From an uncultured delta proteobacterium (GTDB taxonomy: Bacteria; Desulfobacterota; Desulfobacteria; Desulfobacterales; SG8-13), in contig CAWAAN010000024.1 in assembly GCA_963779885.1 (NCBI GenBank), forward strand, positions 78,277 to 142,276: DNA of 64,000 nt. Reading direction: 5' to 3'. Positions within the stretch are counted from its first letter, which is position 1. Each line of letters starts with the position of its first letter. Position numbers and translations under genes: made by a program. The notes beneath the pieces are model-generated. The model was given only the letters and a program-made list of their open reading frames with translations, ran no database searches and was not told where the DNA came from. Below, piece by piece: positions 2 to 53,131 of the stretch.

Positions 2-628
2 CAGAGCCTGGACGGCAGTATCGCCGCCCACGACCGTCGCCAGCTGCGCCTGAGCGGCACGGAGGCGATGGTTCTGACCCACCGTCTGCGGTCCGGCAGC
101 GATGCGATCCTGGTCGGCATCGGCACCGTTCTGAACGACAATCCGGAGTTGACCAATCGCCTGGCCGAAGGCCCCAGCCCCCGGCCGGTCATCCTCGACA
201 CGCGCCTGCGAACGCCGTCGGAGGCGCGTCTGCTGCAGCGAAAGGACTGCGCCTGCTGGATCGTCGGCCGGCCGGACGGCAACGACGGCCGACGCGAAAA
301 CCTGGTGAAAGCCGGGGCGGTTGTCATGGGATGCCGCACGGCCGCCGACGGTCGCATCGACCTGGGGGCGCTGATGCAGCTCCTGGTGGCGCACCGGATC
401 AACGTACTGATGGTGGAAGGCGGGGCCCGGGTCATCACGAGCTTTATCGGCGCCCGCCTGGTGGACCAGCTCATCGTCACCGTAGCCCCCAAGCTGATCG
501 GCGGCCTGAATGCCATCGATGGCCGCGGAACGGGCATGGACCCGTTCGTTCCTCTCGCCCGGGTGGCCTATCAACAAATGGGAAAGGACCTGATCCTGTG
601 GGCGCAACCGGACTGGACGCCAGCGTGA
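2..628 (+). CDS. RibD C-terminal-type (DHFR-fold) pyrimidine/pterin reductase domain protein; 5' end lies outside the window
   Basis: The frame is open from the window edge (QSLDGSIAAHDRR...) into listed ORF 68..628. DAILVGIGTVLNDNPELTNR and LMVEGGARVITSF resemble the RibD reductase domain. Stop TGA 626-628 overlaps the next start (GTGA). Confidence 0.75.
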   Translation, partial: QSLDGSIAAHDRRQLRLSGTEAMVLTHRLRSGSDAILVGIGTVLNDNPELTNRLAEGPSPRPVILDTRLRTPSEARLLQRKDCACWIVGRPDGNDGRRENLVKAGAVVMGCRTAADGRIDLGALMQLLVAHRINVLMVEGGARVITSFIGARLVDQLIVTVAPKLIGGLNAIDGRGTGMDPFVPLARVAYQQMGKDLILWAQPDWTPA

Positions 629-1677
629 AACGCACGGCGGTCATTTTCGATAAGCCCTTTGCCATATCCGTGGCCACCGAAGCGGTCCCGGAAGGCCCAC
701 CGGGCCAGGTTCTCGTCGAAACGGGGATGAGCGCCATCAGTCCGGGAACCGAACTTTTGATTTACCGGGGCCGGGTGCCCGCGGGGTGGCCGGTCGACAG
801 CACCCTTTCGTCACTTTCGGGCGCTTTCGGCTACCCGTTGCGCTATGGCTACGCCGCCGTCGGCCGGGTGGTGGGCGCCGGGCCGGACGCCGATCCGGGC
901 CTGATCGGGCACCGGGTGTTTTCGTTCCAGCCTCACCAGAGTCACTTCCACGCCGATCCCGCGGAGCTGATTCCCATTCCGGCGGATATCGATTCGGAGG
1001 ACGCGCTGTTCGTCCCCACCATGGAGACCGCCGTTAATTTTATGATGGACGGTCGACCGATGATCGGCGAACGGGTGGTGGTGATCGGACAGGGCATCGT
1101 GGGTCTGCTGACCACGGCCCTGCTCGCGCGCTTTCCCCTGTCCGAACTGGTGGCCATCGAGCCCTGTGCCTTCCGGCGTCAAAAGTCCCTGGAAGCCGGC
1201 GCGCAAAAAGCGCTCGCCCCCGCCAGCCCTCGAGATGGCGGCACTCCGGACCGCAACCAGGCTGCCGATGCCCTTCGTGACCCCGCCGATCTGGTTTACG
1301 AGGTCTCCGGCGACCCGGCCGCCCTTGACCAGGCCATCTCGGCCTGCGGCTTCGACGGGCGGGTCATCGTCGGTTCCTGGTACGGAACGCGCCGCGCGGC
1401 CCTGAATCTCGGGCAAGAGTTTCATCGCAACCGAATCCGGTTGCTCAGCAGCCAGGTCAGCACCATCGCCCCCGAGTTAACCGGACGCTGGTCCAAGCAG
1501 CGCCGGATGGCGGTGGTCTGGGACATGATCCGCACCATCCGTCCGGCCCGCTTCATCACCCACCGCTTTGCGGTTGAACAGGCCGCCCAAGCCTATGACC
1601 TGCTGGACCGTCAATCCGAATCCGCCGTTCAGGTGGTCATCACCTACGGCGGCTCGCCTCCGCGTGAGGAAAAATGA
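625..1677 (+). CDS. MDR/zinc-type alcohol dehydrogenase-like oxidoreductase
   Basis: Listed ORF 331..1677 trimmed to GTG 625, because its upstream part overlaps the reductase gene out of frame. It has a GroES-like N-terminus (GQVLVETGMSAISPGTELLIYRG) and the Rossmann motif VVVIGQGIVGLL. Confidence 0.75.
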   Translation: MKRTAVIFDKPFAISVATEAVPEGPPGQVLVETGMSAISPGTELLIYRGRVPAGWPVDSTLSSLSGAFGYPLRYGYAAVGRVVGAGPDADPGLIGHRVFSFQPHQSHFHADPAELIPIPADIDSEDALFVPTMETAVNFMMDGRPMIGERVVVIGQGIVGLLTTALLARFPLSELVAIEPCAFRRQKSLEAGAQKALAPASPRDGGTPDRNQAADALRDPADLVYEVSGDPAALDQAISACGFDGRVIVGSWYGTRRAALNLGQEFHRNRIRLLSSQVSTIAPELTGRWSKQRRMAVVWDMIRTIRPARFITHRFAVEQAAQAYDLLDRQSESAVQVVITYGGSPPREEK

Positions 1678-2063
1678 ACAGCAAGCAAAGTTACACGGTC
1701 GCCGTTCGGCGCGAATTCACCGCCCGGCATTACCTGATCGGTGGCGACTGGGGCGCGGAAAACGAGCCTCATGAACACCGCTACGCGGCTGAAATCCGTC
1801 TCCAGGGCCCTGAACTGGATCGGCACGGCTATCTGGTCGACATCGATGCCGTGACGGCCGCCCTGGAGGGGCAGGTCGCCCGTTTCCGAAACAAAACGCT
1901 CAATGATTTGCCCGAATTCGAGGGCCTCAACCCCAGCGTGGAACACCTGGCGCGGATCATGGGCGAGTCGCTGACCGCCGTCCGCCCGTCGCATCTGAAG
2001 GTCCTGACGGTCAGGATCTGGGAAAACGATATCGCCTGGGTCGAGTATCGAAAAGAGTTCTGA
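1674..2063 (+). CDS. 6-pyruvoyl-tetrahydropterin synthase / QueD-fold protein (cysteine-free variant)
   Basis: 129 aa with the pattern ARHYL...PHEHRY...HGYLVDIDAV typical of the PTPS/QueD fold, with His residues at the metal-ligand positions. The protein contains no Cys at all. ATGA overlap with the upstream stop. Confidence 0.8.
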   Translation: MNSKQSYTVAVRREFTARHYLIGGDWGAENEPHEHRYAAEIRLQGPELDRHGYLVDIDAVTAALEGQVARFRNKTLNDLPEFEGLNPSVEHLARIMGESLTAVRPSHLKVLTVRIWENDIAWVEYRKEF

Positions 2064-3145
2064 TGCGCGTGGGACTGGTGATCAGCGGCAACCTGCAGAC
2101 CCTGACCGGCGGCACGCTCTACGATCGCATCCTGGTCGATGACCTGCGCCGCCGGGGGCACCGGGTCACTCTTTTCCCGCTGCCGACCGGCCAGGGATAC
2201 GCACGCCAGCTGACCGCCAATTTATCGCGTTCTCTGTTCAGCAAGGTGGCGCACGATGCGCCGGACATCCTGCTCGAGGACGGCCTCTGCCACCCGGCCC
2301 TTTTCCTTCAGAACAAGCGCCTGCGGGCGGTCGTCAAGGGCCCGATTGTGGCGCTCCTCCACCAGGTTTTAAGCCGCCAGCCCCGCCCGAACTGGCAAAA
2401 CACCGCCTATGGCCTGGTTGAAAAGCGCTACCTGCAATCCGTGGATGCCTGTATCTTCAACAGCCGGACCACCCGGGAAGCTGCCGGGGCCGCCGGCGCA
2501 CCCGATGTTCCGGCCATCATCGCCCGGCCCGCCGGGGACCGGCTCGGCACTGTGGCCTCGAGCGCTTCAGTCTCCGTCCGCGCGCGAAAAATAGGCCCCC
2601 TGCGGCTGCTTTTTCTGGCCAATGTCCTGCCGCACAAGGGCCTTCACCGCCTGGTCGATGCCCTGGCGGCCGTCTCTTTGCGCATGTGGCATCTGACGGT
2701 GGTCGGCAGCCTGACCATGGACAGCGCTTATGCCCAACACGTTATGGCCCGCGTCACCGCCCGCGGGCTGTCGCGCAACATCCGCTTCCTGGGGGCACGG
2801 GACGGCCCCGAACTATCCGGCATACTGACCAAAAGCCACCTGCTGGTCCTGCCCTACTCACATGAAGCCTTCGGCATCGTTTTCTTAGAGGGCATGGCCT
2901 TCGCGCTGCCGGCCGTCGGTTCCACGATCGGCGCCGCCCGCGAAATCATCCGGCACGGCGAAAACGGGTTTCTCGTGGAGCCGGGCAATTTGACCGAACC
3001 GGCCAGAATCGTCAAGGACCTGTTCACCGACCGAGACCGGCTTGAAGCCATGAGCCACAAGGCCCTGGAGACGTTCCGCGGGTCTCCCGGATGGCGGGAC
3101 ACCATGGAAAAAATTCATGTTTTTCTGAAAAAACTAATGGAATGA
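2063..3145 (+). CDS. GT-B fold (GT4-like) glycosyltransferase
   Basis: 360 aa. The C-terminal EAFGIVFLEGMAFALPAVGSTIGAAREIIRHGENGFLVEPGN is the classic GT4/GT1 nucleotide-sugar-binding region. The start overlaps the upstream stop (TGATG). Confidence 0.85.
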   Translation: MRVGLVISGNLQTLTGGTLYDRILVDDLRRRGHRVTLFPLPTGQGYARQLTANLSRSLFSKVAHDAPDILLEDGLCHPALFLQNKRLRAVVKGPIVALLHQVLSRQPRPNWQNTAYGLVEKRYLQSVDACIFNSRTTREAAGAAGAPDVPAIIARPAGDRLGTVASSASVSVRARKIGPLRLLFLANVLPHKGLHRLVDALAAVSLRMWHLTVVGSLTMDSAYAQHVMARVTARGLSRNIRFLGARDGPELSGILTKSHLLVLPYSHEAFGIVFLEGMAFALPAVGSTIGAAREIIRHGENGFLVEPGNLTEPARIVKDLFTDRDRLEAMSHKALETFRGSPGWRDTMEKIHVFLKKLME

Positions 3146-4104
3146 ATGATTTTACCGGCTATCTGGCGGCCAAGAAAAAGATCGACGACCGCGCGCTAAA
3201 CCGCGGCGTCTGGGAGCGTCTCGCCGGCGCCCTGCCCGACCGGCGGGCGCCCGAACCACTGCGCGTGCTGGAAATCGGCGCCGGCATCGGCACGATGATC
3301 GAGCGCATGGCCGCAGGGCCATTGCGGCACCGTTCATCGTCGTATACCGCGGTCGATATCGATCCGGAATGCACCGGTACGGCCCGCCGCCGATTGAAAA
3401 GCTGGGCCGAAAATGCGGGCTTCGGTGTCAGCCGGGACAATGGGGGGTACCGCCTCAAGTCGCAGGACACGGCCATCCGGCTGGAGTTTAAAACGGCTGA
3501 CGCATACCGTTTTGCGGCGGCGGCCGGGCACGCTTATGATGCGCTGTTGGCCCACGCCTTCTGGGACCTGGTCGATATCCCCACGCTGCTGCCCGGCGTG
3601 CTGCAACTGCTGTCGGACGGCGGCCTGCTTTTTTTCAGCCTGAACTTCGATGGCGACACCGTCCTGCTGCCGGCCATCTCAGATGATTTCGACGAGCGCG
3701 TGATCCGCTTGTACCACCGTAGCATGGACGAGCGCATCATCTGCGGGCGCCCGTCCGGGCACAGCCGGACCGGGCGCCGTCTGCTTTTGGCCCTCATGGA
3801 CCACGGGACCGACATTCTGGCCGCCGGCGCCTCCGACTGGGTCGTCTATCCCCGCCGCGGCCGCTATGGTGAAAACGAATCCTGTTTCCTGCACCATATC
3901 GTTCACACGATCGATGCCGAACTGACCCGTCATCCCGAAATCGACGCCGATCGCTTCAAGGACTGGATCGCCCGGCGCCAGGGCCAGATCGAAAACGGCG
4001 AGCTGGTTTTCATGGCCCACCATCTCGATATCCTGGCCCGAAAAAAGGCCCTTGATCGCCGTCAGGCATCCCTTATTTTCTCGGGCGTTACTCCTCGACA
4101 ATGA
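3142..4104 (+). CDS. class I SAM-dependent methyltransferase
   Basis: Trimmed to ATG 3142 (MNDFTGYL), which overlaps the glycosyltransferase stop (ATGA). SAM motif I is VLEIGAGIGTMIERM. Confidence 0.75.
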   Translation: MNDFTGYLAAKKKIDDRALNRGVWERLAGALPDRRAPEPLRVLEIGAGIGTMIERMAAGPLRHRSSSYTAVDIDPECTGTARRRLKSWAENAGFGVSRDNGGYRLKSQDTAIRLEFKTADAYRFAAAAGHAYDALLAHAFWDLVDIPTLLPGVLQLLSDGGLLFFSLNFDGDTVLLPAISDDFDERVIRLYHRSMDERIICGRPSGHSRTGRRLLLALMDHGTDILAAGASDWVVYPRRGRYGENESCFLHHIVHTIDAELTRHPEIDADRFKDWIARRQGQIENGELVFMAHHLDILARKKALDRRQASLIFSGVTPRQ

Positions 4105-4282
4105 TGGCGCCGGGCGCACACTCCCGGGCGGCCTGGCTGACGGCGTCTTCCAGATGGGTCGGAACAACGTCGACGAGGACCTTCGCGATCAGCTTATCCT
4201 GATCGTAGGCGAATACTTCCGGGCATACCTTGTGGCAGTTCCGGTCGCCCATGCACAAATCATAATCGATCTTGACTTTCAT
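4088..4282 (-). CDS. small single-cluster ferredoxin (Cys-x2-Asp-x2-Cys-x3-Cys-Pro type)
   Basis: 64 aa with CMGDRNCHKVCP...ECAPGAI, resembling Pyrococcus/Desulfovibrio-type 3Fe/4Fe ferredoxins. Confidence 0.8.
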   Translation of the reverse strand: MKVKIDYDLCMGDRNCHKVCPEVFAYDQDKLIAKVLVDVVPTHLEDAVSQAARECAPGAIIVEE

Positions 4283-5440: not shown

Positions 5441-6178
5441 TCAGAGGATTTCAAGGTTCAGGATGTCGCTGATTTTCGCCGCCAGGTCTTGCGCGGCCGC
5501 CGCGGCGATTCGTTGGCCCCATTCGGCGGTCGCCAGCCACGGCGCGGATTCCATCCGGCCGTCCGGAAAAAACGTTCTCATCTCGGTGGCCGTCAAGGGC
5601 CAGTAATATTTCGGTTTTTCAACCGTAAGCGCCTGGGTGGCCTTGCCGTCGAAGGCCGATGGCCGCAGGTCCTTGGTAATCGACACCTCGCTCGGCGTGG
5701 CGTGCTGCCCGTCGTGATCGCCAAAGGCTTCCCGGCAGGCCTTTTTCACGCCGGCTCCCGCATACCAAGATATCACATCGAAGTAACCGGCCAGGCCCTC
5801 GTCTTTGAGCTGGCCGAATGCCGTCTTCAGTGGCACGATATTGCCCCCGTGCCCGTTGATGAAGAGGATGCGACGGAAACCGTGGGCCACCAGTGACCGG
5901 ACGATATCGGCGGCCATCGCCATCAGCGTGGCGGGGCTCAGTGCAATGGTGCCCTTGAACGCCATGTGATGCGGTGAGACGCCGTAGCAGACTGTCGGCG
6001 CTACCAGGAGTTCCAGGTCGTCCCCGACCGTGCGGGCGATGGCCTCGGCCGCGATAAAATCGGTCCCGATCAAGCCATAGGGGCTGTGCTGTTCCACCGA
6101 ACCGACCGGCACCAGAACAACATCCTTTTTCGCCAGATACGACGCCACCTCGGTGTAGGCCATGTTTTCGAGCAGCAT
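5441..6178 (-). CDS. creatininase-family amidohydrolase
   Basis: 245 aa with VVLVPVGSVEQHSP...GTD...FINGHGGN, the creatinine amidohydrolase / ArfB / MftE family signature. Confidence 0.85.
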   Translation of the reverse strand: MLLENMAYTEVASYLAKKDVVLVPVGSVEQHSPYGLIGTDFIAAEAIARTVGDDLELLVAPTVCYGVSPHHMAFKGTIALSPATLMAMAADIVRSLVAHGFRRILFINGHGGNIVPLKTAFGQLKDEGLAGYFDVISWYAGAGVKKACREAFGDHDGQHATPSEVSITKDLRPSAFDGKATQALTVEKPKYYWPLTATEMRTFFPDGRMESAPWLATAEWGQRIAAAAAQDLAAKISDILNLEIL

Positions 6179-22708: not shown

Positions 22709-25700
22709 TCACTTTTCCTTGGTGCTCACAAGCAACTGGCCGGTAAACAGCATGCGGGCCGCCGCGCCGGTGTACCAGCTCCACCCGCCCCGGCCCTCGT
22801 AGCCCGGCCCGCAATAAACATCGGCCGGCTGCTGATGCGGCGGCAGGCCATAGATCGCCAGGTCTGCGAGGGCCAGGTGGCCGAGCGGTGAGATCTTGCG
22901 CCACAGACTCCGCGCTTTGGCCCGGTAATCGGCGGCGACTTTTTCTTCCCCCCGCCCCGTGGCCTCATCCGCCAGAACAAGCAGCGCATCGACCAGCCAG
23001 GACACACCGTGCGCATATTGGCCGCCGTTCTCGCGGACCCCCGGCGGATAATCGGCCAGCCGGCCGGGATAGACGGCGTCATTTTCGGTAAAAGGCGGCG
23101 CAAAGAGTTGGACGAGGGTCTCCTTTTCGAGTTCCCTCAGAGCCGTGGCCATGGCCTGCCGCCCCCTTTCCGGACCCGCGACGCCGGAGAGTATCGACCA
23201 GGCGGCCACCAGGGCGTTGGGGCGGGTCAGCGGCCGTCCACTATCGGTGTAATAGTTGACATACCGGTCTCCCAGCCACGTCGCGTCGAGGCGGTTTCTC
23301 AATGCCGCGGCTTTCGCCAGCAGCTCCTTCTGGCGGCCTTGCCCTTCTTTTTTCGCCGCCAGGTCGGCGAAGTGGGTCAAAACATCGTGAAAGAAGAATC
23401 CGAGCCAGACACTCTCGCCCCTGTTTCTGATCCCGGCCGCATCGAGGCCGTCGTTCCAGTCGCCGGCCCCCAGCAGCGGCAACCCGTGCGACCCGGTTTT
23501 CTGAAACGTGAGGTCGATCGCTTTGAGACAATGCTCATAGAGGCGCGCCGTGTCGCGGGAAGCACGCTGTGCCGCCACCTGCGTGGCGGCCTTTTTCCCC
23601 AGTGATCCGCCTTCCAGGTAAGGCGTTTTTTCGTCCAGAATTGGCCAGTCTCCCGTGGTGTTCACGTAATGGTAAACCATGTAAGGCAGCCACAGGTGAG
23701 GGTCCGAAGCCCGTCCACGGGCGCCTATGCCCGTTTTTTCCTCCCAGGATCGATGCCACCACTGCAAGACCTCCCCGCCGCGAAACTGCTGGGCGGCGTG
23801 ACGTAGAATCTGCCGGCGGGCCAGCTGGGGTTTGAGGTGAAGGAGCGGCAGGATATCCTGGAGCTGGTCGCGGAAGCCAAAGGCCCCGCTGCGCTGGTAC
23901 GGCCCCAGCCGGCCCCAGAGACGGGCCACCAGCACCTGATACGGCAGCCAGCAATTGACCAGCCGATCGAAGGCATGATCGCCGGAGCGGGCCGACGGCT
24001 CTCCGAGATATTGCCGCCACCACTGCCGGGTGTCGACAAAGGCCTGTTGAGCGGCGGAGACATCCCGAAACCTATGGATGATCTGAGCGGCGTGTTCCCG
24101 GCTGGGGGTCTGGCCGAATATAAAACTCACCGTCACTTCGCCTGAGGCGGGAACCTGCACCTCGCCGGCGAAAGCCGCGCAGCGAAAGCCGTCATCGGGC
24201 CGGCTCGCATCGGAGGTGCCGTATTGCAGCATGAAGGGATTGGTGAGGTCACGCCCGCTGCCGCCGAGGACTCTGGCCCGCACCGTCTCGAATGCGGCCG
24301 CCGTCAGACTCGTGGCGGCAAAGGCCCAGCCGCGCCAGTAGTCATTGTGAGGATTGGAGAAGAAAAGCGCGGCCAGGTCTTGGTCGTGTTCCGTGACAAT
24401 GCGGCCGCGCGTATCCACCGGCATCTCTCCCAACATGATCTGCCAATACGGTAGCACGCGATACACCAGGGGCTCTGCGGTGCGATTGCGAATCGTGAGC
24501 AGTCGGATCTCGGCCGGCTGGTCGGGTAAAACGAAATGACACATGTCAAGTTCGAGCGCCGCGCTGCGGTTTCGGGAAATCGAATAGCCCGGGCCCCAGC
24601 GCACATCGAAAAACCGGTCCTTTCTCCGCAAGGGAATGAAGGTGGGCGTATCCGCCTGGCCGGTCGTCCGGTTCAGCAGGTAGAAAACCTGCCCGGGCAG
24701 CTGCGAGGGAACCGAGTCGGTGTCAAACGGCGTCAGACCGTTTTGCTGCGAATTTTTCATGAAGGAATAGCCGGCGCCCTGGTTCGATACCACGCAGCCG
24801 TAGCCGAGGGGATTGGCCATCACATGACTCCAGGGACGGGGGGTGTGGCAGCCGACGGTCAGTTCGCCGCCGTCGGGTGCAAACCGGTAGCAAAGAGACG
24901 CGGGGTCGGCGCTGCCGGCTTTTTCCGCGGCGATGGGCCGGTTCAGGCGGCGCGTCCGGGTAAAGGCGGGCCAATCACGGGCATCCGCCGGCAGGCGCCG
25001 GCCCAGGTGTTTCGCGATGCGCGTCAAGGCCTGGTGCTCATCAACCCCATAACCGTCGACGAAGGTCACCGTGGCCGCGCCGAGCGGCGGCAGTTCGACC
25101 CGCAGGCACAGGCTGGCCACCGGGTCGAAGGTGTAGCACAGGCCTTCGTCCGCGGGGTCGCGCCGGCCGGCCGTCAGCCCCGCGGGCGCCGACAGCGTCG
25201 CGCGGCCGATGAAAAGCGAGCGGGAGTCCTGGTATCCGATGAGGGTGACCCCGTTCACGGCATCCTCTTTCACTGCGTGAAAGGCCGTCTCGGTCGAAGC
25301 CTGGCGCCCGGCCGTGTCCTTATGCGCCCGCTTGAGCCGGCGGTTGCCGGCCAGCAGGGCGCCCAGCGGACGAACGAAACGCGTGCCGATATGCAGGTGG
25401 TTGAAAAAAGGGTGGCGCTGGTAGGCGTCGGTGTTGTTCAGAGCGAACTCCTGATAACTGGTCAGCTCGATGATTCGGGGCCTGGGTTCGAGATTTCTCA
25501 ACTGCACGTGCCGGACTTCCACCGGTTCGGTCGCCCCCACGCGCAGAGTCACTGCGGCGCTAATGCCCCTTTGTTCGGTCGTCATTTCCAGGGCCAGCGG
25601 ATCGGGTTGCTCCATTCGGTAGTCGCCTTCCCGGCGCCGCACGGGGGCAAAACCAATCGACCAGAACCCAGCGGGATCCTCCGGCGCACCGGACCACTCC

Positions 25701-28150
25701 CGCAGATAAAAAAATTTGCCTCGCATCTGGAGCGGGTCATCCGGCCGGCGGGTGATATCGATCTCAAAGCCCTTTCGCAGGGCGCTGAAAACCCGGCTGT
25801 GCCCCCGGCCGTCGCCGGTGATCTCGGCCGTGTACGTGCCGTTGGACAGGACGAATTTTTCGTGTCCGTCCGGCGAAGGACGCCCCTGCGCCGCCCCTGA
25901 TAGCGGCCGAATGGCCGCCGGCGGCGACCGGCGTTTTTGGAGGGCGAAAAAAAGTCCCAGCGCACCGGCGACAAATAGAAATCCGCCCACGACATAGGTG
26001 ACCGGCGGCCAGGCGGTGGCGGCCCGCTGCGCGGCGCGTTCGGCCGAGGTTTGCCAGACGTAATTCCATTCCGCACCGCGTGGCAGGTAGAAGGGAATCA
26101 GCAGGGGCGCCCAGGTGGCAAACCGCCTCAAGCCCAGGGGCATGCAGCGGGTGCGGGCCGAATAACCGATGGCCCGGGCCGCCTTTTCGTCCAGGATGTC
26201 GACGCCGACAAAAGACAGATTGACGAGGGTGGCCACCCGCAGCCCCATGTGGTCGACCCAGATCAGAATGCGGAACCAGTCGTAGACCAGCAGGTTGAGG
26301 AAAACGTTCAGGCTCCACGCACGAAAGCTCTCGGGATCGAGGGTCCAGCTCTTGAACGTGGCCACGAGGGTCCGGATGGCGCCGTCCTGGTTGTACCAGG
26401 TCGGGTCCGGCGACATGCGCAAAAAGGAATAGATAATCGGTGCCATCCACAACCCCCACCGCAGAACGCGCACGGCCTGCTCGACCAGCCCGACCACCCC
26501 CTGGCGCGTCAACAACTCTTTCAAGGGTACGGTGCTGCGCTGGAGCATGGCATTGAGGACGACAAGGTTGATACTGAAAAGCGGCGCCGCCAGTGACCAG
26601 TTGATCACGCCCGAAAGCGCCTCGTTGTAAAGCAACCGGACACCGCCGGGAGTGTGGCCCAGGTTCAGGGCGCCCCATTTGCTGAAAAGCGGGTAAATGA
26701 CGTAATCGGCCACAGCCTTATCGGCCGCGGGATAGTAAAGTGCGGCGTATTTGAAGAACTTGCTGGTCAGCACCCGCAGCTGCAAGGTGTCGGCGTACCA
26801 GGCCAGTCCGCCGCCGGCGACGCCACCCAAAACGATCCCCAGGGCATACACCCGCCAGGCTTGGAGGCGCTGCCGTCTGCCGGTCAGCACATCGACGGCG
26901 TCCCTTAGAAAATCGACGCCCCCGTAACCCGCGGCACCGGCCAGAAACCCGAAAAAAAACCGTTCGTCGCCGCCGATCATCGGCAGGCCGTTGGCGAGGG
27001 CATCCCCGCCAAAGCCGCCCAGCACGGCCCCGCGCAGTAAATCGACGGTCTGGCGGTAATTTTGGCCGGCTCTCTGAAAAAACCGGCCGCTGCCGTCGAA
27101 GGTTTCGATGATGGTCTTTAGAAATGGGAAGACCAGGGCCCCCGCACAGGCGGAGAATATCACGGGGGCGGCCCTGGCCACTGAGACGACGGCGTCTACC
27201 CGCATCAGCACGGCCAGGAGTTGGACCATCGAAATGAACACCAGGCTGTAGACGGCCCCTTTGGAAAAACCGGACCGGAAGTGGTCGGAGCCCCAGTACC
27301 AGGTCGGCGGCTTGCCATGAAAGGCGTCCATGATCAGGCCGGTGATCAGGAAGGTCTGGCTCCAGAGACCCGCCTGGGAGAGCATGGCAAAAAAAAGGGC
27401 GGCCGGCACGGCAACGATCCAGGGCCGGCCGGCCAGGTAGGCGGCCGATCCCCAGTCGGCGAATTCCGGCGTGACGGCGGCCATCAGGGCGCTGCCCAAC
27501 AGCAGGGCGTGCACCCTCGCATCTGCGACCAAGCGCCTGACCACCAGCAGGCCGATCAGGTTGGCGACCGCCTCGTTGAACAGCCCCAAAATGACGCTGC
27601 GCCCCAGGAAAACCGGCAGCAGGGAACTGGCGGTCGCGCCGGACAGGGCCGCACCGCCGATCAGTCGCACGAGATCCGTGTTTCCGATGAGAAGCACCCC
27701 ATTGAAAAGGGAGGGAATCACCAGAATCGTGCCGGCCAGCAGCGGCGGAGGATGCCGGCCGGCAACCAACAGACGTTGCACCACGGCCAGGCTGTAGATC
27801 ATGGTAAAGAGGCTCGCGGCCAGGCCGGTCATGACGAAAGGGTCATTAAGCGTCCTGGGCACCTGCCATAGGTCGAGGCCGGCCCGCACCCAGAGCGCAA
27901 AGAGGGCCGACACGAGAAAGTCCTGAAAAGCTTCGACCCCTGTGAGCCACTTCCCGGTGAATTGCCACTTAAAGAATCCGGCCGCCAGCAGTCCGAAAAC
28001 GCCCGCCGGCAGGGCGCTCACCCACCCTTGCCCCCGAGCGGTGGCATAAATGGAGGCCGCCGCGGCCAGGGTGCCACACCAGAAAAGGGGCCCGCCGGGC
28101 ATCAGACGGTCTTTGGCAACTGCGCCTTTTTCGTGCACCTTCTCTGTCAT
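22709..28150 (-). CDS. multi-pass membrane domain fused to a GH94-family glucan phosphorylase (1,2-beta-oligoglucan phosphorylase / cyclic-glucan-synthase C-domain like)
   Basis: 1813 aa. The N-terminal ~740 aa is almost entirely hydrophobic segments. The C-terminal ~1070 aa carries GFRDQLQD, EVLQWWH, SDPHLWLP and LLGAGDWNDGLD, typical of GH94. Confidence 0.85.
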   Translation of the reverse strand: MTEKVHEKGAVAKDRLMPGGPLFWCGTLAAAASIYATARGQGWVSALPAGVFGLLAAGFFKWQFTGKWLTGVEAFQDFLVSALFALWVRAGLDLWQVPRTLNDPFVMTGLAASLFTMIYSLAVVQRLLVAGRHPPPLLAGTILVIPSLFNGVLLIGNTDLVRLIGGAALSGATASSLLPVFLGRSVILGLFNEAVANLIGLLVVRRLVADARVHALLLGSALMAAVTPEFADWGSAAYLAGRPWIVAVPAALFFAMLSQAGLWSQTFLITGLIMDAFHGKPPTWYWGSDHFRSGFSKGAVYSLVFISMVQLLAVLMRVDAVVSVARAAPVIFSACAGALVFPFLKTIIETFDGSGRFFQRAGQNYRQTVDLLRGAVLGGFGGDALANGLPMIGGDERFFFGFLAGAAGYGGVDFLRDAVDVLTGRRQRLQAWRVYALGIVLGGVAGGGLAWYADTLQLRVLTSKFFKYAALYYPAADKAVADYVIYPLFSKWGALNLGHTPGGVRLLYNEALSGVINWSLAAPLFSINLVVLNAMLQRSTVPLKELLTRQGVVGLVEQAVRVLRWGLWMAPIIYSFLRMSPDPTWYNQDGAIRTLVATFKSWTLDPESFRAWSLNVFLNLLVYDWFRILIWVDHMGLRVATLVNLSFVGVDILDEKAARAIGYSARTRCMPLGLRRFATWAPLLIPFYLPRGAEWNYVWQTSAERAAQRAATAWPPVTYVVGGFLFVAGALGLFFALQKRRSPPAAIRPLSGAAQGRPSPDGHEKFVLSNGTYTAEITGDGRGHSRVFSALRKGFEIDITRRPDDPLQMRGKFFYLREWSGAPEDPAGFWSIGFAPVRRREGDYRMEQPDPLALEMTTEQRGISAAVTLRVGATEPVEVRHVQLRNLEPRPRIIELTSYQEFALNNTDAYQRHPFFNHLHIGTRFVRPLGALLAGNRRLKRAHKDTAGRQASTETAFHAVKEDAVNGVTLIGYQDSRSLFIGRATLSAPAGLTAGRRDPADEGLCYTFDPVASLCLRVELPPLGAATVTFVDGYGVDEHQALTRIAKHLGRRLPADARDWPAFTRTRRLNRPIAAEKAGSADPASLCYRFAPDGGELTVGCHTPRPWSHVMANPLGYGCVVSNQGAGYSFMKNSQQNGLTPFDTDSVPSQLPGQVFYLLNRTTGQADTPTFIPLRRKDRFFDVRWGPGYSISRNRSAALELDMCHFVLPDQPAEIRLLTIRNRTAEPLVYRVLPYWQIMLGEMPVDTRGRIVTEHDQDLAALFFSNPHNDYWRGWAFAATSLTAAAFETVRARVLGGSGRDLTNPFMLQYGTSDASRPDDGFRCAAFAGEVQVPASGEVTVSFIFGQTPSREHAAQIIHRFRDVSAAQQAFVDTRQWWRQYLGEPSARSGDHAFDRLVNCWLPYQVLVARLWGRLGPYQRSGAFGFRDQLQDILPLLHLKPQLARRQILRHAAQQFRGGEVLQWWHRSWEEKTGIGARGRASDPHLWLPYMVYHYVNTTGDWPILDEKTPYLEGGSLGKKAATQVAAQRASRDTARLYEHCLKAIDLTFQKTGSHGLPLLGAGDWNDGLDAAGIRNRGESVWLGFFFHDVLTHFADLAAKKEGQGRQKELLAKAAALRNRLDATWLGDRYVNYYTDSGRPLTRPNALVAAWSILSGVAGPERGRQAMATALRELEKETLVQLFAPPFTENDAVYPGRLADYPPGVRENGGQYAHGVSWLVDALLVLADEATGRGEEKVAADYRAKARSLWRKISPLGHLALADLAIYGLPPHQQPADVYCGPGYEGRGGWSWYTGAAARMLFTGQLLVSTKEK

Positions 28151-28442: not shown

Positions 28443-30020
28443 TCAGGGTTGATAGACATAGCTCCAGGTTTCACTGAGCACGTCGGGACCTCTTTTCAAA
28501 AAGGCCCTGATTTCGATCGGGCCCGCCGGTCCGGGTTCGGCCGGCTTTTCAGGGTCGATCTGAAAGACCAGGCGCCAGTGACCGGTTTGCGGTACTTTGG
28601 CGAGCTGCTGTTCGACAAGGGTGGCATTGGGGCTGACATGGACGGCCGCTGCGAGCGGCTGATCGCCGGCCAGCGAGGTGAGGTCGCCGCCGGTGAAATC
28701 GACCACGAACTTACGCAACCCGGGTGCTTTGCCGTCGGCCGTGCGGGAGGCATCCACATACGCGCCCGGCGGGCGATGCCCGTCGGCGAAGTAATGCCAG
28801 CTCATGCGGTAGTCGAAACTGACGGGCTGGCCGACCGGGGGCGGGGTGGCGGGGACCCAGAAGGCCACGATGTTGTCATGGATCTCTTCGTCGGTCGGGA
28901 TCATGATCAACTGCACCCGCCCGTCGCCCCAGTTGCCGACCGGCGCCACCCAGAGGCTGGGCCGATTTTCATAATTGCTTTCGATGTCCTGGTAGTGGTC
29001 ATACGCCTGGTCCCGCTGCAGCAGACCGAAGCCTTTGGGGTTGGTCATCTGAAAGGAGGTCACCAGAAGTTTGGGCGGGTTCACCAGCGGGCGCCAGATC
29101 CATTCGCCGGAGCCGGTCTCCATCATCAAGCCGTCGGTGTCGTGAATTTCGGGCCGAAAGTCGTCTACCGGCCGCGGATACGTGTTTTCACCATAAAAGA
29201 ACATGCTCGTCATCGGCGCAATGCCGAGTTGCTCGATTTTTCGCCGGGGCAAAAGAGTGCTTCTGACATCCATCACCGTCTCTTTTCCAGGATGAATGAC
29301 AAACTGATAGGCACCCACAATGCTGGGGCCATCGAGAATGGCATAGAGGGTGAGCGTCTTCGCGTCGGGGGCCGGTTTTTGAATCCAGAACTTGCGGAAG
29401 TACGGAAATTCTTCACCGCTCGGCAGAGTGGTGTCAACGGCCAGCCCGCGGGCCGAAAGGCCGTAGTTCATGTTTTGGCCGACCGCCCGGAAATAGCTGG
29501 CCCCGAGAAACACGGCCACCTCGTCCTGATATTCCGGTGTGTTGATGGGATAGTGGATGCGAAACCCAGCGAAGCCCAGATCATCGGGCACGAGGTCCGC
29601 GACCCTTTTTTTCTTGTAGTCGAAGAGGTCCTTCGAAAAGCGCACCGGATGGATGGTGCCCGACGGTTCGATCACGTTTATCTTCACCGTCCGATCGAAA
29701 TAAAGGCCCGGATGAAAGAATTGCAGCGTAAAGGGCAAATTTTCGTCGCGCCACAGGGCCTTGGGCGGCTTGAAGCGAATGTCACGCCAGTCGTCATAGT
29801 CGATCTTCATGAGCCGCTCGGGCACTTCGCCCGCGGGATTCATGTAAGGTGATTGGGAAAGCCGGCGGGCTTCATCGACCGCCGTTTCAAATGTAAAGGG
29901 GGTGCTGGCCGCGGCCGCGGAGAGATCGAGCCGGGCACAGCCGCTGAAAAGGGCGAGAGGAAGAAAAAGAAGAAAAATGTGACGGTGGCGGAACCAGTCG
30001 AAAAATTTCAACATCATCAT
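28443..30020 (-). CDS. opgG: periplasmic glucan biosynthesis protein, OpgG/OpgD (MdoG/MdoD) family
   Basis: 525 aa with a signal peptide or lipobox-like FSGC. Motifs YDDWRDIRF, LQFFHPG, FAGFRIHYPIN, YFRAVGQ and EFPYFRKFWI are typical of MdoG. Confidence 0.9.
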   Translation of the reverse strand: MMMLKFFDWFRHRHIFLLFLPLALFSGCARLDLSAAAASTPFTFETAVDEARRLSQSPYMNPAGEVPERLMKIDYDDWRDIRFKPPKALWRDENLPFTLQFFHPGLYFDRTVKINVIEPSGTIHPVRFSKDLFDYKKKRVADLVPDDLGFAGFRIHYPINTPEYQDEVAVFLGASYFRAVGQNMNYGLSARGLAVDTTLPSGEEFPYFRKFWIQKPAPDAKTLTLYAILDGPSIVGAYQFVIHPGKETVMDVRSTLLPRRKIEQLGIAPMTSMFFYGENTYPRPVDDFRPEIHDTDGLMMETGSGEWIWRPLVNPPKLLVTSFQMTNPKGFGLLQRDQAYDHYQDIESNYENRPSLWVAPVGNWGDGRVQLIMIPTDEEIHDNIVAFWVPATPPPVGQPVSFDYRMSWHYFADGHRPPGAYVDASRTADGKAPGLRKFVVDFTGGDLTSLAGDQPLAAAVHVSPNATLVEQQLAKVPQTGHWRLVFQIDPEKPAEPGPAGPIEIRAFLKRGPDVLSETWSYVYQP

Positions 30021-32101: not shown

Positions 32102-34525
32102 TTACGACCAGTCCGGCACCAACCGCCCGTCAGGCTGCCGGCGGTAGGGCAGCCACAGTAAGCCGAAAACCTCGAGCGCCATGTCGGTGCTCCGGGGGGT
32201 TACCCGCACTTCGTCCAGCGGCTCGCTCACGGGATCGTGGTCGGCGGTCAGCGCGTCGATATCTTTTTGCAGGCGCTCTTCGAGTCCGGCAAGTTTGCGG
32301 TCCACCGCGGTGATCGTTTCCTGGGCGCGGGTGACATCCATCTGTTCCTTGCCCAGCCGCCCGGCCGACTTTATGGCCGCGCCCACCCGCGTCACGTTGC
32401 GCGAGCTGACGGCCTTGCGGCCCAGAAAAGACCCCAGGATGGCCGTGCCGAAGGAAATCACGCTCTCTATTTTTCGACTCTGGACCTGTTCCTGCTCCCG
32501 CGCCAGGATTTGTTCGGCCCGCAAGCGGCGGTCCTTGAGAGCGGCGAACTTTTCCCCATACTTACGGCGCAGGTTGTCGGCCGCAAGATCCCGCTGTTCG
32601 CGGGCGGTCAGAGTGAGCCGCGCCCGGAAGGCCCCTTCGGTCTCACCGGGAGAACTGGTCATTTTAAACTGTTTGGACTGGTAAAGGAGCAGGGGACGGT
32701 TCTGCCGGACCCAGCGCAACATGTCCTTGGACCATTTTTTGTAGTCCCCGGCCCGGTTGGCGGCCGCCGGCAGATCCTTAAAGGCGGCCCCGGCCAGCGG
32801 GGACCCGGCCAGGCCGCCGGCAGCGCCCACCAACTCCAGGGCCTGGTCCCAATCGACCGGCAGAGGCCCGTCTTCGAGGGGTGCCGCCAGGGCGACGGTT
32901 TTACCGACATCGACACCGTAGCCGCTGTGGCTGTAATGAACATTCAGCCAGCCCCCGGCCGCCGGGACATAATAAAGGCCCTGGCCCGCGCCCGAGGCCG
33001 GCAGAAAAAACACCGCGACACCGGTCGGGGGAAGGGGCGGATACCCGCTGCCGGCAGTCGGCGGTGGCACCCAAGACGCGCCGGGCGGCGGTGGTGCGGC
33101 CGGCGCAGGGTCACCGGCGAGCGCACCGGCGCCAAGCATCTTGATCTGCTCGCGGGTCATCGGCCCCGCCAGATAAGACAAGGTCCAGCGGGTTTCGAAA
33201 ACCACCGGTTCACTGTCGTGCACGTTATTCATCAGAAACACCCGTTGACCGAGACCGGCCAGGATTTCACCCATCTTCTGCCGGTTGAACCGCGCACCGG
33301 CCGCGGCGCCTTCGAGCCCGGCCATCACGCGCTCTTTATCGTTCGCGGTCTGCAGCCGCCCGATAAACCAGGTGCCGGTGTTGGCCAGGCCCTTGTAATC
33401 GAGATCGACCGGGTTCTGGGTCGCCAGCACCACCCCCAGACCGAAAGCCCGGGCCTGTTTCAACAACGTCAACAGCGGCGGTTTGGACGGCGGGTTTTTC
33501 ACCGGCGGAAAGAACCCGAATATTTCGTCCATGTACAGGAGCGCCCGCAGGCTGGCAGTCCCCGGCTGGGTCCGCACCCAGCCGAGGATTTCATTGAGCA
33601 GCAGGGCGGTGAAGAACATGCGCTCGGCCTCGGACAGGTGGCCGATGGCAAAGATCGCGGCGCGGGGCTTACCGGCGGGGGTGTGCAGCATCCGGCCGAT
33701 GTCCAGTGGATCTCCGGCAAGCCAGGCGTCGAAGCCGGGGGCCGCCAGCAGGTTGTTCAAGCGCAGAGCCAGCTGGAAACGCTCCTTGGCGGGATAAAAC
33801 GACTCCAGATCCATCACCCCGATACGTTCCAGCGGCGGTTGCTGAATGAGCCGGATGAGTCCGGCGAGGTCCATGCCGCGGCCGGCGCTCCAGGCCTGCT
33901 CGAAAATGTTGGAGATCAGAATGTGCTCGCGGCTGTTGAGGGCTTCGGCCTCGATGCCCATCAGGGTCAACAGCGCGGTGACCGTCGTTTGGATCCGTTC
34001 CCGGAACACGTCGCTGTCCGCGCGAACCTCCGGCGACGGCGCGGCGAAGTTGCGCAGAACGTTGACCGGCAAACCGGCGCTGCTGCCCGGCGTGTAGACG
34101 GCAAAATCGGCGGCGGCGCGCAGCCGGGCAATTCGCTCGGGCTCCTGGTCCCACGTTGCCAACCCGTCGCGCCACTGGGCGGCGGTTTTTTCGGCCAACT
34201 GCTCGGCGTCCATTCCTTGGCGCGCCGCGTCACCGGGTTGGATCCAGGGCCGGAAGTCCTGCGGCTGCAGATCGGGAAAACCGAGCAGCAGGTTGGCGAG
34301 ATCGCCCTTGGGATCGATGGCGATCACCGGGATGTTGTCGATCAGCGCTTCCTCCAGCATCCCGATCCCCAAGCCGGTCTTGCCGCTGCCGGTCATGCCG
34401 ATGATGACGGCATGCGTGAGAAGGTCCCTGGAATCATAGAGAAGCGGTTCATCCCGCCGTTTGCGGGCGGCGAGGTCGAAAAATTTCCCCAGATAAAACA
34501 CCCCCAGTCTTTCGTAAGCCTTCAT
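32102..34525 (-). CDS. HerA/FtsK-like P-loop ATPase with Pro-rich linker and coiled-coil tail (function unknown)
   Basis: 807 aa. Walker A is GMTGSGKTGLG, Walker B is LLYMDEIFGF, and ATQNPVDLD is present. A Pro-rich tract follows (AAPPPPGASWVPPPTAGSGYPPLPPTG), then heptad-like charged C-terminal segments. Confidence 0.7.
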   Translation of the reverse strand: MKAYERLGVFYLGKFFDLAARKRRDEPLLYDSRDLLTHAVIIGMTGSGKTGLGIGMLEEALIDNIPVIAIDPKGDLANLLLGFPDLQPQDFRPWIQPGDAARQGMDAEQLAEKTAAQWRDGLATWDQEPERIARLRAAADFAVYTPGSSAGLPVNVLRNFAAPSPEVRADSDVFRERIQTTVTALLTLMGIEAEALNSREHILISNIFEQAWSAGRGMDLAGLIRLIQQPPLERIGVMDLESFYPAKERFQLALRLNNLLAAPGFDAWLAGDPLDIGRMLHTPAGKPRAAIFAIGHLSEAERMFFTALLLNEILGWVRTQPGTASLRALLYMDEIFGFFPPVKNPPSKPPLLTLLKQARAFGLGVVLATQNPVDLDYKGLANTGTWFIGRLQTANDKERVMAGLEGAAAGARFNRQKMGEILAGLGQRVFLMNNVHDSEPVVFETRWTLSYLAGPMTREQIKMLGAGALAGDPAPAAPPPPGASWVPPPTAGSGYPPLPPTGVAVFFLPASGAGQGLYYVPAAGGWLNVHYSHSGYGVDVGKTVALAAPLEDGPLPVDWDQALELVGAAGGLAGSPLAGAAFKDLPAAANRAGDYKKWSKDMLRWVRQNRPLLLYQSKQFKMTSSPGETEGAFRARLTLTAREQRDLAADNLRRKYGEKFAALKDRRLRAEQILAREQEQVQSRKIESVISFGTAILGSFLGRKAVSSRNVTRVGAAIKSAGRLGKEQMDVTRAQETITAVDRKLAGLEERLQKDIDALTADHDPVSEPLDEVRVTPRSTDMALEVFGLLWLPYRRQPDGRLVPDWS

Positions 34526-34635
34526 CGCAACCCTCCTTTAGACGCTGGCGCCGTTCACGGAACTAAAGACCGCCGGAAGGCGAACGCCGGCAATTAAGCC
34601 GACGGCGTCTTTTTCAATGACAGGATCGAATTGAC

Positions 34636-36180: not shown

Positions 36181-36463
36181 TAGATTTAAATGATGTTTTT
36201 ATTCAGGACGCTGACCGATACGATCTTTTTGCGTCGGGTTTTTTTTCATCTCGTAAAATAGATTAGGCCCCCTCGTGATGGTTTGGGTTGCGATTGGTCC
36301 GTCGTTGGCCTATATTGGCTGACATCAGCCGCCGGACCCAGCCATTTATCCGGCCTCCGGCCTGAGTTAATGGATGCGCCGGCTCATGTCGGCGCATGAC
36401 GTCACGCCGGTCGCCCCTGACTGCGGGTCGGCAATTCACTGTAATGACGCAAGGAGGTCACAC

Positions 36464-48909: not shown

Positions 48910-48914
48910 CGTGG

Positions 48915-52502: not shown

Positions 52503-52602
52503 TACCGGTTCTCCTTTTCTTTTGGGCTCGAAGTCGACCCTGAAGAGTGTCATCCTAACTGCCGGACGCCAGCCGGTCAGTCCGGTTTTTGCCCTTCGCT
52601 TA

Positions 52603-52617
52603 GCAAAAAGAGTGCCA
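52603..52617 (-). promoter_or_regulatory. sigma-54 (-24/-12) promoter candidate for the aminomutase operon
   Basis: The minus strand reads TGGCACtctttTTGCT, an exact match to TGGCAC-N5-TTGCW. It lies ~100 nt upstream of ATG 52502. Confidence 0.65.
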
Positions 52618-53131
52618 AATAAATCGAACGCCTGAAAAAAATAACCGGCGCCACATGCACACCGCTGAAAGTCGCCAGCCCTTGATTTCAGACGGTTCGG
52701 CCGCATCGTCCAACCGCATGCAGGCAGGCGGTCCCGTGGACGCACCACCGGCCGGGTGATAGTGAAGAACTCACGGTTCCTTTTTTGTCCTCTAAGGGAA
52801 TTATGTGTTCGCGTCGGGCAGCCGGGGAACCCGGCAGCGGATGTCACGAACTCCGCCAGTGACAAACAGGTCCGCCGATTTTATTTATATCTTTATTTTC
52901 AGCAGGTTGAATTTACGGGTTCCAGGACCCGCGGATCGGCCCGTGACCCGCGCGCCGGCCCGACCGGAACATTCAGTTCCACCCGGCTGCCGGCCGGCAA
53001 AAAATCAACCGGGGTGATAACCGGGTGTTACGCGCACGGCACGGTAATTGCTTTTTGAAATGGCTTTAAGCACGCGCGGCGCCCGTCGATCGGCGTCGTC
53101 ATCACCTTCACCAGCAAGGGGAATACGTCAG

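Follow-up and report, generated by a model that had tools for sequence, protein, structure and literature searches.

What do the five overlapping genes at the start of a 64,000-nt stretch of DNA from an uncultured delta proteobacterium of the Desulfobacterales (lineage SG8-13, contig CAWAAN010000024.1) produce? The stretch, referred to here as the window, opens with a plus-strand run, g1–g5, that encodes in turn a RibD_C-type reductase, an MDR dehydrogenase, a small protein of the PTPS/QueD fold (T-fold), a GT4 glycosyltransferase and a class I methyltransferase dependent on S-adenosylmethionine (SAM). An earlier reading of the sequence, hereafter the original prediction, proposed that these genes may make a pterin that is reduced, glycosylated and methylated, or else a related cofactor derived from a pyrimidine. 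From a computational analysis of the genes, their relatives and their neighbours, we take the five genes to form the core of a conserved route with at least six genes, and consider the chance slightly better than even that this route builds the polar head group of a membrane phospholipid from GTP.

First, the five genes behave as one unit. They fill positions 2–4104 of the window and overlap at each junction, and the strings ATGA (g2/g3, 1674–1677), TGATG (g3/g4, 2061–2065) and ATGA (g4/g5, 3142–3145) stand exactly where the original prediction had read them. The GTGA that it gave for the g1/g2 junction is also present, at 625–628, but in public annotations of identical contigs g2 begins at GTG 598 (359 aa, 31-nt overlap with g1), a start with a better Shine–Dalgarno sequence (AAAGGA, 583–588) than GTG 625; g1 and g2 overlap whichever start holds. 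At its 3′ end the operon is limited by a convergent ferredoxin gene (64 aa) that overlaps g5 tail to tail, and searches of the operon and its surroundings turned up neither an Rfam family nor a tRNA, nor a sigma-70-like promoter or convincing terminator. Pfam backs all five of the predicted fold assignments; of the NCBIfam models, the equivalogs all stay below cut-off for the five proteins, and only the domain model TIGR00227 is passed, by full-length g1.

The same arrangement recurs widely. In a scan of one genome per species of the Genome Taxonomy Database (GTDB), close relatives of g3 occur in more than 582 species; the best 80 loci, to which the locus analysis refers, belong to Desulfobacterota, Chloroflexota (Anaerolineae, Caldilineaceae, Promineifilaceae and Ardenticatenaceae), Calditrichota (Calditrichia) and Gammaproteobacteria (Methylomonas fluvii, M. 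subterranea, Methylobacter and Cellvibrio). Searches by tblastn with the window proteins recovered the order RibD_C–MDR–PTPS–GT4–methyltransferase in most of them. Because this order is kept in dozens of loci from four phyla, the genes are one unit rather than chance neighbours, as the original prediction held, and the RibD_C, MDR, T-fold and GT4 genes, with or without the methyltransferase, are shown to be a single conserved unit across phyla.

Second, this unit is accompanied by enzymes of membrane-lipid synthesis. Just beyond the window start, 96 nt upstream of g1 and in the same orientation, is a gene for a 393-aa CDP-alcohol phosphatidyltransferase (CDP-OH_P_transf, here CDP-OH). Its product matches PF01066 at 1.9e-15 and falls in a distinct clade of proteins of about 390 aa for which the equivalog cut-offs of PgsA, PIPS, PssA and ClsA are all unreached, the scores against the first three falling far short. 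Full-length homologues are encoded no more than 8 kb from the T-fold gene in 17 of 31 Chloroflexota loci, 3 of 4 Gammaproteobacteria loci and the one Calditrichota locus; some lie upstream in the same orientation, others downstream in the opposite one. The reverse search, started from CDP-OH, gave the same association: four of four distant homologues (35–42% identity) sit directly upstream of RibD_C–MDR–(PEMT)–PTPS–GT4, and the T-fold, MDR, GT4, RibD_C and methyltransferase proteins of these loci are 43–60% identical to those of the window. One of these four homologues, the 545-aa protein P0504 from the Logan metagenome assembly SRR26090898, joins a CDP-OH domain (residues 90–259) to a RibD_C domain (residues 331–536), and MDR, PTPS, PEMT and GT4 genes follow. 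This fusion is strong evidence that the two activities belong to one pathway, probably acting on successive intermediates.

Further membrane proteins extend the pattern. The CDP-OH transferase is accompanied by an LPG_synthase_TM membrane protein (flippase-like, HpnL-like) in 29 loci; PEMT/ICMT-family membrane methyltransferases are encoded at L088, L090, L092 and L010; and orthologous sulfatase-superfamily proteins of about 540 aa (38–48% identical) are encoded directly downstream of the GT4 or methyltransferase gene in four loci (Table 1). The sulfatase superfamily includes the head-group transferases LtaS, EptA and OpgB, and the presence of such proteins suggests that the head group may be passed on from the lipid to an acceptor in the envelope. 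Taken together, the CDP-OH gene, its fusion to RibD_C and the flippase-, PEMT- and LtaS/EptA-like neighbours speak for a product linked to a lipid rather than for a soluble cofactor.

It could be objected that the GT4, methyltransferase, CDP-OH and flippase-like genes serve ordinary envelope glycolipid or polysaccharide synthesis and that the RibD_C, MDR and PTPS genes merely lie beside them. GT4 enzymes and class I methyltransferases are, after all, ubiquitous in envelope loci, and the best NCBIfam and PDB matches of g4 are exopolysaccharide glycosyltransferases. We give this explanation almost no weight: the overlaps at four of four junctions, the order kept in four phyla plus Streptomyces and the existence of the CDP-OH::RibD_C fusion exclude chance adjacency in practice, and the reverse search from CDP-OH returned the cluster every time.

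Table 1. Positions of the features discussed, in the window or in the named locus.
Feature	Sequence	Position	Strand	Description
g1	window	2..628	+	RibD_C pyrimidine reductase, stand-alone; 5′ end cut by window start
g2	window	598..1677	+	BchC-like MDR dehydrogenase; alternative start GTG 625
g3	window	1674..2063	+	Cysteine-free PTPS/QueD-fold (T-fold) protein, 129 aa
g4	window	2063..3145	+	GT4 glycosyltransferase (GT-B, retaining), 360 aa
g5	window	3142..4104	+	Class I SAM-dependent methyltransferase, 320 aa
Ferredoxin gene	window	4088..4282	-	Convergent with g5
Creatininase-family gene	window	5441..6178	-	Downstream of the operon
GH94 gene	window	22709..28150	-	1813 aa
MdoG gene	window	28443..30020	-	Periplasmic-glucan biosynthesis
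Open reading frame	window	32102..34525	-	807 aa
Opposite-strand open reading frame	window	32237..34597		Overlaps the 807-aa frame
Acetyl-CoA hydrolase/transferase–GNAT	window	36374..38341	+	655 aa
Histone deacetylase–GNAT	window	46657..49155	-	832 aa
Radical SAM protein	window	51153..52865	-	570 aa
P0504	L088	1031..2668		CDP-OH::RibD_C fusion
Sulfatase-superfamily protein	L088	6202..6750		Cut by contig end
Sulfatase-superfamily protein	L090	14398..15996		
Sulfatase-superfamily protein	L091	12939..14645		
Sulfatase-superfamily protein	L092	12876..14519		
Protein of about 180 aa	L009	4805..5359		No family match
Methyltransferase homologue	L006	3200..4132		One in-frame stop codon
Methyltransferase homologue	L074	9506..10453		One in-frame stop codon

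Third, the neighbourhood points to the compound with which the pathway begins. A gene for GTP cyclohydrolase II (GCH II) stands immediately upstream of RibD_C in 38 loci, including 31 of 46 from Chloroflexota and all 6 from Gammaproteobacteria; its product scores above the cut-off of TIGR00505 and has a PF00925 match of 2e-68. Tyrosine occupies the position of E. coli Tyr105 in every readable copy (33 read automatically and 4 by eye; one partial match stopped short of the position). The original prediction had expected an upstream GTP cyclohydrolase for a pterin route; the clusters carry type II rather than type I, and no cyclohydrolase of any type was found in the window or, on a longer contig, in the 10 kb that precede it. 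Given the GCH II gene upstream, the entry substrate would therefore be a riboflavin-type ribosylamino-pyrimidine rather than dihydroneopterin triphosphate.

The properties of g1 agree with such a substrate. It matches Pfam RibD_C at 3.8e-38, measures 237 aa at full length (loci L001/L002) and lacks a deaminase domain. The full-length copy from L002 exceeds the curated cut-off of the riboflavin reductase domain model TIGR00227 (160.9 versus 150.15), which places it among the RibD-type pyrimidine reductases, and does not reach that of the archaeal equivalog TIGR01508 (125.8 versus 186.45). Among solved structures it is closest to RibD reductase domains and to the archaeal 2,5-diamino-6-ribosylamino-pyrimidinone 5′-phosphate reductases 2AZN and 6P8C; the best matches include the M. 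jannaschii and fungal-type reductases. The combination of GCH II with a deaminase-free RibD_C protein is also how riboflavin synthesis starts in archaea and fungi (GCH II or III, with ArfC/Rib7 acting before deamination), but the clusters have no deaminase, RibB, RibH or RibE, and their reductase is found amid, and once fused to, lipid enzymes.

Since GCH II and the RibD_C reductase are the first two steps towards riboflavin and FO, the cluster might instead feed a flavin or deazaflavin cofactor, riboflavin or F420. In keeping with this, the PTPS-IV subfamily, the nearest relative of g3, has been stated to be involved in F420 synthesis, with reference to unpublished work (Zallot et al. 2016, PMC5041015). 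We nevertheless regard a flavin or F420 role as decidedly improbable, as RibB, RibH, RibE, a deaminase, FbiC/CofGH, CofC/D/E and FbiA/B are all missing among the families that recur in the 80 loci, neither flavin nor F420 synthesis has a use for GT4, CDP-OH, flippase-like or PEMT genes, and g3 lacks the FGPAQ motif of PTPS-IV.

Fourth, the T-fold protein g3 departs from the enzymes that act on pterins. It matches Pfam PTPS at 1.3e-24 and, as the original prediction noted, has not a single cysteine in its 129 residues while retaining the metal-site histidines: H19 (in ARHYL) and H33 and H35 (in PHEH) occupy the zinc-ligand positions of PTPS and QueD. In an alignment of 13 relatives (56–74% identity) these three residues are invariant, as is E117, at the position whose residue holds the pterin ring in place in PTPS and QueD. 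A further invariant residue, E29, occupies the column of the catalytic Cys27 of E. coli QueD in an alignment with QueD and SCO6650, a Streptomyces coelicolor protein discussed below, and the Asp–His of the classical PTPS triad corresponds to R72–N73. The family signature reads H...D-W-G-[AP]-E-N-x-x-H-x-H...W-E-N. An AlphaFold model of g3 (pLDDT 91; order of strands and helices E-E-H-H-E-E) superposes best on the structure of SCO6650 (3D7J, TM 0.86) and next best on QueD (0.80), and the family profile likewise matches 3D7J at E 2e-15, with QueD and PTPS at only about 1e-4. An exhaustive profile search returned 683 clusters (50% identity) at E <=1e-10; the pattern H / E-x3-H-x-H / E is the rule among the 101 full-length proteins of the best 150, and the only fusions among these 150 representatives are tandem PTPS repeats.

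With TM scores of 0.80–0.86 to PTPS-family structures and the invariant anchor E117, g3 belongs to the T-fold superfamily, which is marked by a beta(2)-alpha(2)-beta(2) fold and a Glu or Gln that anchors the 2-amino-4-oxo-pyrimidine. Judged by the subfamily motifs of Zallot 2016 (PMC5041015) and AGeNNT 2017 (PMC5445326), it falls outside PTPS-I, -II and -III. It has neither the CxxxxxHGH and Asp–His of PTPS-II (TIGR00039, 28.3 versus a cut-off of 125.5) nor the CxxxHGH of PTPS-I/QueD (TIGR03367, 42.1 versus 89.25), and none of the 80 loci holds a que gene. In place of the ExxHGH of PTPS-III it has an invariant Asn30 at −3, its Glu at −4 and a middle residue other than Gly. PTPS-IV comes closest: its neighbourhood is listed with PF00925 (mislabelled FolE2) and PF01872 (AGeNNT, PMC5445326), and the present loci share that setting, with GCH II in 38 and RibD_C in most. 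Its signature FGPAQ (PMC5445326) is replaced in the g3 family by WG[AP]EN, and g3 has three histidines compared with two in SCO6650. By its motifs, then, g3 is a sister of the PTPS-IV type that retains the zinc site and in which Glu replaces the catalytic Cys. Assignment to a subfamily of known non-pterin function had been named as grounds for abandoning the pterin idea; no such assignment resulted, as the nearest group, PTPS-IV/SCO6650, has no published function. In summary, g3 and the PTPS/QueD enzymes have in common the T-fold, the three histidines at the zinc-ligand positions and the pterin-anchoring Glu, and they differ in that g3 lacks the catalytic Cys, carries Glu at −4 instead of the −3 of PTPS-III and has Arg–Asn for Asp–His; the queC/queE/folE context of QueD is likewise replaced by GCH II.

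The dehydrogenase g2 (Pfam ADH_zinc_N, 1.5e-7) has BchC as its top NCBIfam model, at 87.6 bits and below the cut-off of 291. BchC oxidizes a secondary alcohol next to a ring system. The family motif S-a-i-S-x-G-T-E places Ser at the position of the catalytic-zinc Cys, so that g2 lacks the GxCxxD/H cysteine of zinc-dependent MDR alcohol dehydrogenases; it is 39% identical (E 7e-39) to the MDR protein encoded beside SCO6650 in Streptomyces, compared with at most 36 bits to any solved MDR structure. The methyltransferase g5 matches Pfam Methyltransf_23/25/12/11, and the best solved relatives of its family profile are the plantazolicin-type N-terminal N,N-dimethyltransferases BpumL and BamL, a weak match at E 8e-6. 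Its homologue is missing from five of five assessable Gammaproteobacteria loci, and in other loci a PEMT-family membrane methyltransferase replaces or joins it. The methyltransferase homologues at L006 and L074 each contain one in-frame stop codon and may be pseudogenes or reflect assembly errors.

The glycosyltransferase g4 (Pfam Glycos_transf_1, 4.9e-29, and Glyco_trans_1_4) had been likened to the pteridine glycosyltransferases BGluT and PgtA. That comparison shows it no closer to these than to HepE or BshA: its best PDB matches are Alr3699/HepE (64 bits) and BshA (48 bits), and the tetrahydrobiopterin glucosyltransferases 5ZE7 and 9V0L score 35–40 bits, figures on which we rejected g4 as a pteridine glycosyltransferase. 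The BGluT structures share the GT-B/GT4 fold of g4 and a weak similarity in the nucleotide-sugar half, whereas the GTP cyclohydrolase I (GCH I), PTPS-II and sepiapterin reductase of BGluT-type pathways are not found beside g4.

These observations bear on whether the product is the soluble reduced, glycosylated and methylated pterin cofactor of the original prediction, akin to the biopterin and cyanopterin glycosides of cyanobacteria. The PTPS fold of g3 with its conserved zinc histidines and pterin-anchoring Glu, and the weak match of g4 to GT4 enzymes that glucosylate tetrahydrobiopterin, would suit such a product, and reduction by g1 followed by 2′-oxidation by g2 could conceivably permit ring closure of the GCH II product to dihydroneopterin 3′-phosphate; Chlamydia is said to offer a precedent for a route from GCH II to pterins. 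Weighing against it, no locus contains a gene for GCH I, sepiapterin reductase or a FolB-type enzyme, the cyclohydrolase being of type II; g4 is nearer to GT4 enzymes of polysaccharide and thiol synthesis than to pteridine glycosyltransferases; g3 lacks the Cys–Asp–His triad; and the dedicated membrane enzymes, with the CDP-OH::RibD_C fusion foremost, find no use in a soluble cofactor route. A soluble pterin is hence unlikely in our estimate, although the hedge towards a pyrimidine-derived product pointed in the right direction.

A more distant counterpart of the cluster occurs in Streptomyces. The protein in 3D7J, SCO6650 of Streptomyces coelicolor, was deposited in 2008 as uncharacterised, and the Streptomyces locus that we examined encodes a protein 98% identical to it. 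This locus shares the order MDR–PTPS–GT4–methyltransferase with the window, lacks RibD_C and additionally holds a divergent CDP-OH_P_transf gene, an LPG_synthase_TM gene, a creatininase-family gene and a GCH II gene. Its GT4 protein is 27% identical to g4 over the full length, and its methyltransferase-like protein has a SAM motif and a gene that overlaps that of the GT4. Like g3, to which it is about 25% identical, SCO6650 lacks the Cys–Asp–His triad and keeps the pterin-anchoring Glu, but it carries FGPAQRLHGA, two of the three metal histidines and Ala at the position of E29.

The Streptomyces GCH II, whose gene adjoins the creatininase-family gene, has Met at the Tyr105 position. According to work attributed to Spoonamore and Bandarian in 2008, this Met reportedly makes SCO6655 release a formylated intermediate. 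By analogy with BrbF, a bacterial creatininase-family deformylase (PMC9478397), the Streptomyces creatininase-family protein would be a deformylase, and the Tyr-type and the Met-plus-creatininase arrangements would converge on 2,5-diamino-6-ribosylamino-4(3H)-pyrimidinone 5′-phosphate. The window also has a creatininase-family gene, located 1.3 kb downstream of the operon as originally noted, and its link to the operon is at most tentative: it is syntenic only in close relatives, its product resembles the Streptomyces protein at family level (40% identity over 96 N-terminal residues only), and neither protein reaches the ArfB, MftE or creatininase cut-offs.

How might such a set of enzymes build a phospholipid head group? 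In the pathway that we propose, GCH II, in the window organism presumably the housekeeping enzyme, would yield 2,5-diamino-6-(5-phospho-ribosylamino)pyrimidin-4(3H)-one. Like the riboflavin reductases of archaea and fungi, g1 would then reduce the ribosyl chain of this compound to ribityl, with no deaminase involved. The reduced pyrimidine would be a polyol phosphate comparable to glycerol-3-phosphate or inositol-1-phosphate, and by this analogy we infer that it could serve as a head-group alcohol. In the reactions of CDP-alcohol phosphatidyltransferases a hydroxyl receives a substituted phosphate from a CDP-alcohol, as a rule CDP-diacylglycerol, and the enzyme encoded upstream of g1 would join the polyol to the phosphatidyl group of CDP-diacylglycerol. 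The BchC-like g2 would oxidize a secondary alcohol of the chain, and g3 would bind the 2-amino-4-oxo-pyrimidine through Glu117 and act by His3–Zn and Glu29 chemistry, in one of two ways: zinc-assisted closure of a dihydropterin ring after 2′-oxidation, or deaminase-like hydrolysis at C6 with release of ribitylamine. Reduction by g1 followed by 2′-oxidation by g2 would be equivalent to the Amadori step of GCH I, so ring closure would be feasible; the step assigned to g3 is the most speculative part of the proposal. GT4 enzymes transfer sugars from NDP donors with retention of configuration, in many cases to polyol phosphates or membrane lipids, and PEMT enzymes methylate lipid head groups; g4 would add a sugar, g5 would methylate an amine or hydroxyl, and the flippase-like protein, where present, would move the lipid to the outer leaflet.

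Most of these elements have counterparts in known CDP-alcohol head-group pathways: the polyol-phosphate acceptor, a HAD phosphatase, a GT4, N-methylation, a flippase-like protein and a sulfatase-superfamily transferase. Examples are PgsA with phosphatidylglycerophosphate (PGP) phosphatase, PIP synthase with the GT4 PimA, the conversion of phosphatidylethanolamine to phosphatidylcholine by PmtA/PEMT, MprF, and EptA/LtaS. The difference is that here the alcohol would derive from GTP by way of a ribitylamino-pyrimidine. To our knowledge no such GTP-derived head group has been described, and a literature search found neither one of this kind nor any assignment of a product to this gene combination or to SCO6650–6655.

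Several observations weigh against a GTP-derived head group, and they account for our limited confidence in it. Each chemical step is read from family membership. No CDP-OH or flippase-like gene lies within 8 kb in any of the 12 assessable Desulfobacterota loci outside the lineage of the window; the window and L002 have no flippase-like, PEMT or sulfatase-like homologue; and CDP-OH and g1 may be transcribed separately, given the T-rich 96 nt between them. Some products of CDP-alcohol phosphatidyltransferases are phosphodiesters other than lipids, di-myo-inositol phosphate for example, so that a diacylglycerol lipid is not required as acceptor or donor. In Streptomyces the T-fold protein has neither the third histidine nor an equivalent of Glu29, and the locus lacks RibD_C, so the chemistry may vary between lineages. 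Finally, spending one GTP per molecule would be costly for a bulk lipid.

The second option for g3 leads to a more specific and tentative possibility, to which we assign a low probability: that the cluster makes the aminopentanetetrol (APT) head groups of phospholipids. APT, chemically a 1-amino-1-deoxy-pentitol, is ribitylamine. GCH II and RibD_C would supply the 6-ribitylamino-pyrimidine, the His3–Zn/Glu T-fold enzyme would free (phospho)ribitylamine by a deaminase-like reaction at C6, and the CDP-OH enzyme would link it to diacylglycerol phosphate, after which a class I or PEMT-type methyltransferase would N-methylate and the GT4 glycosylate it. The cluster holds the enzyme types that this route calls for, candidate N-methyltransferases among them. 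In the Methanospirillum structures, APT lipids bear phosphate and amine at opposite ends of the C5 chain, a geometry that fits 5-phospho-ribitylamine, and the best, though weak, solved relatives of the methyltransferase profile are N,N-dimethyltransferases of primary amines. Mono-, di- and tri-N-methyl and O-methyl APT lipids are known from Methanomicrobiales, and APT from Aquificae and Thermodesulfobacterium (PMC6423904, PMC5572230, PMC4318418); our literature search found no paper naming the genes for APT lipids. Speaking against this route, a guanine-derived ring would be wasted for each lipid, g2 would have no obvious role, no APT has been reported from taxa with the cluster, and in Streptomyces the T-fold protein has no zinc site.

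Parts of this picture had already been noticed, without a published function: the T-fold subfamily and its GCH II/RibD_C neighbourhood (3D7J, 2008; PMC5041015; PMC5445326). In the literature search we did not find described the sister family that retains the zinc site with Glu for Cys, its breadth of five phyla (counting the Actinobacteria through Streptomyces), or its link to CDP-OH (including the fusion) and to flippase-like, PEMT-like and LtaS/EptA-like proteins. The lipid-enzyme neighbours turn an orphan pterin-like operon into a testable prediction, a phospholipid with a GTP-derived head group. Within the well-studied PTPS/QueD family, PTPS-IV is the one branch for whose role there is only an unpublished remark. 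If the prediction is correct, it would define a new route from nucleotide metabolism to membrane lipids and might explain the origin of APT lipids, which are used as biomarkers; if the lipid model is false, the cluster still marks a use of the GCH II product outside flavin synthesis. The operon is present in hundreds of species, among them cultivable Methylomonas, and most Streptomyces have an SCO6650 counterpart.

Other components of the loci vary. A HAD phosphatase gene lies downstream in seven Desulfobacterota loci. Some Chloroflexota loci have additional genes between MDR and PTPS; these are heterogeneous (phosphatase-like, SDR epimerase-like, GNAT and an extra methyltransferase) and, except for the PEMT/ICMT type, uninformative. 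Between the flippase-like gene and GCH II, 12 Chloroflexota loci encode a protein of about 180 aa with no family match (L009 and homologues), and 6 loci encode a second protein without family assignment, of about 198 aa, downstream of the methyltransferase.

Elsewhere in the window, an 807-aa open reading frame has no Pfam match at E<=1e-5, and a long open reading frame on the opposite strand leaves its coding strand uncertain. Three proteins show unusual domain combinations: a histone-deacetylase domain fused to a C-terminal GNAT acetyltransferase, an acetyl-CoA hydrolase/transferase fused to GNAT, and a lysine-2,3-aminomutase-like radical SAM protein extended at its N-terminus by about 300 aa. 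Lastly, a protein resembling cyclic beta-1,2-glucan synthases and phosphorylases, with GH94 supersandwich and catalytic domains, is encoded next to the MdoG gene.

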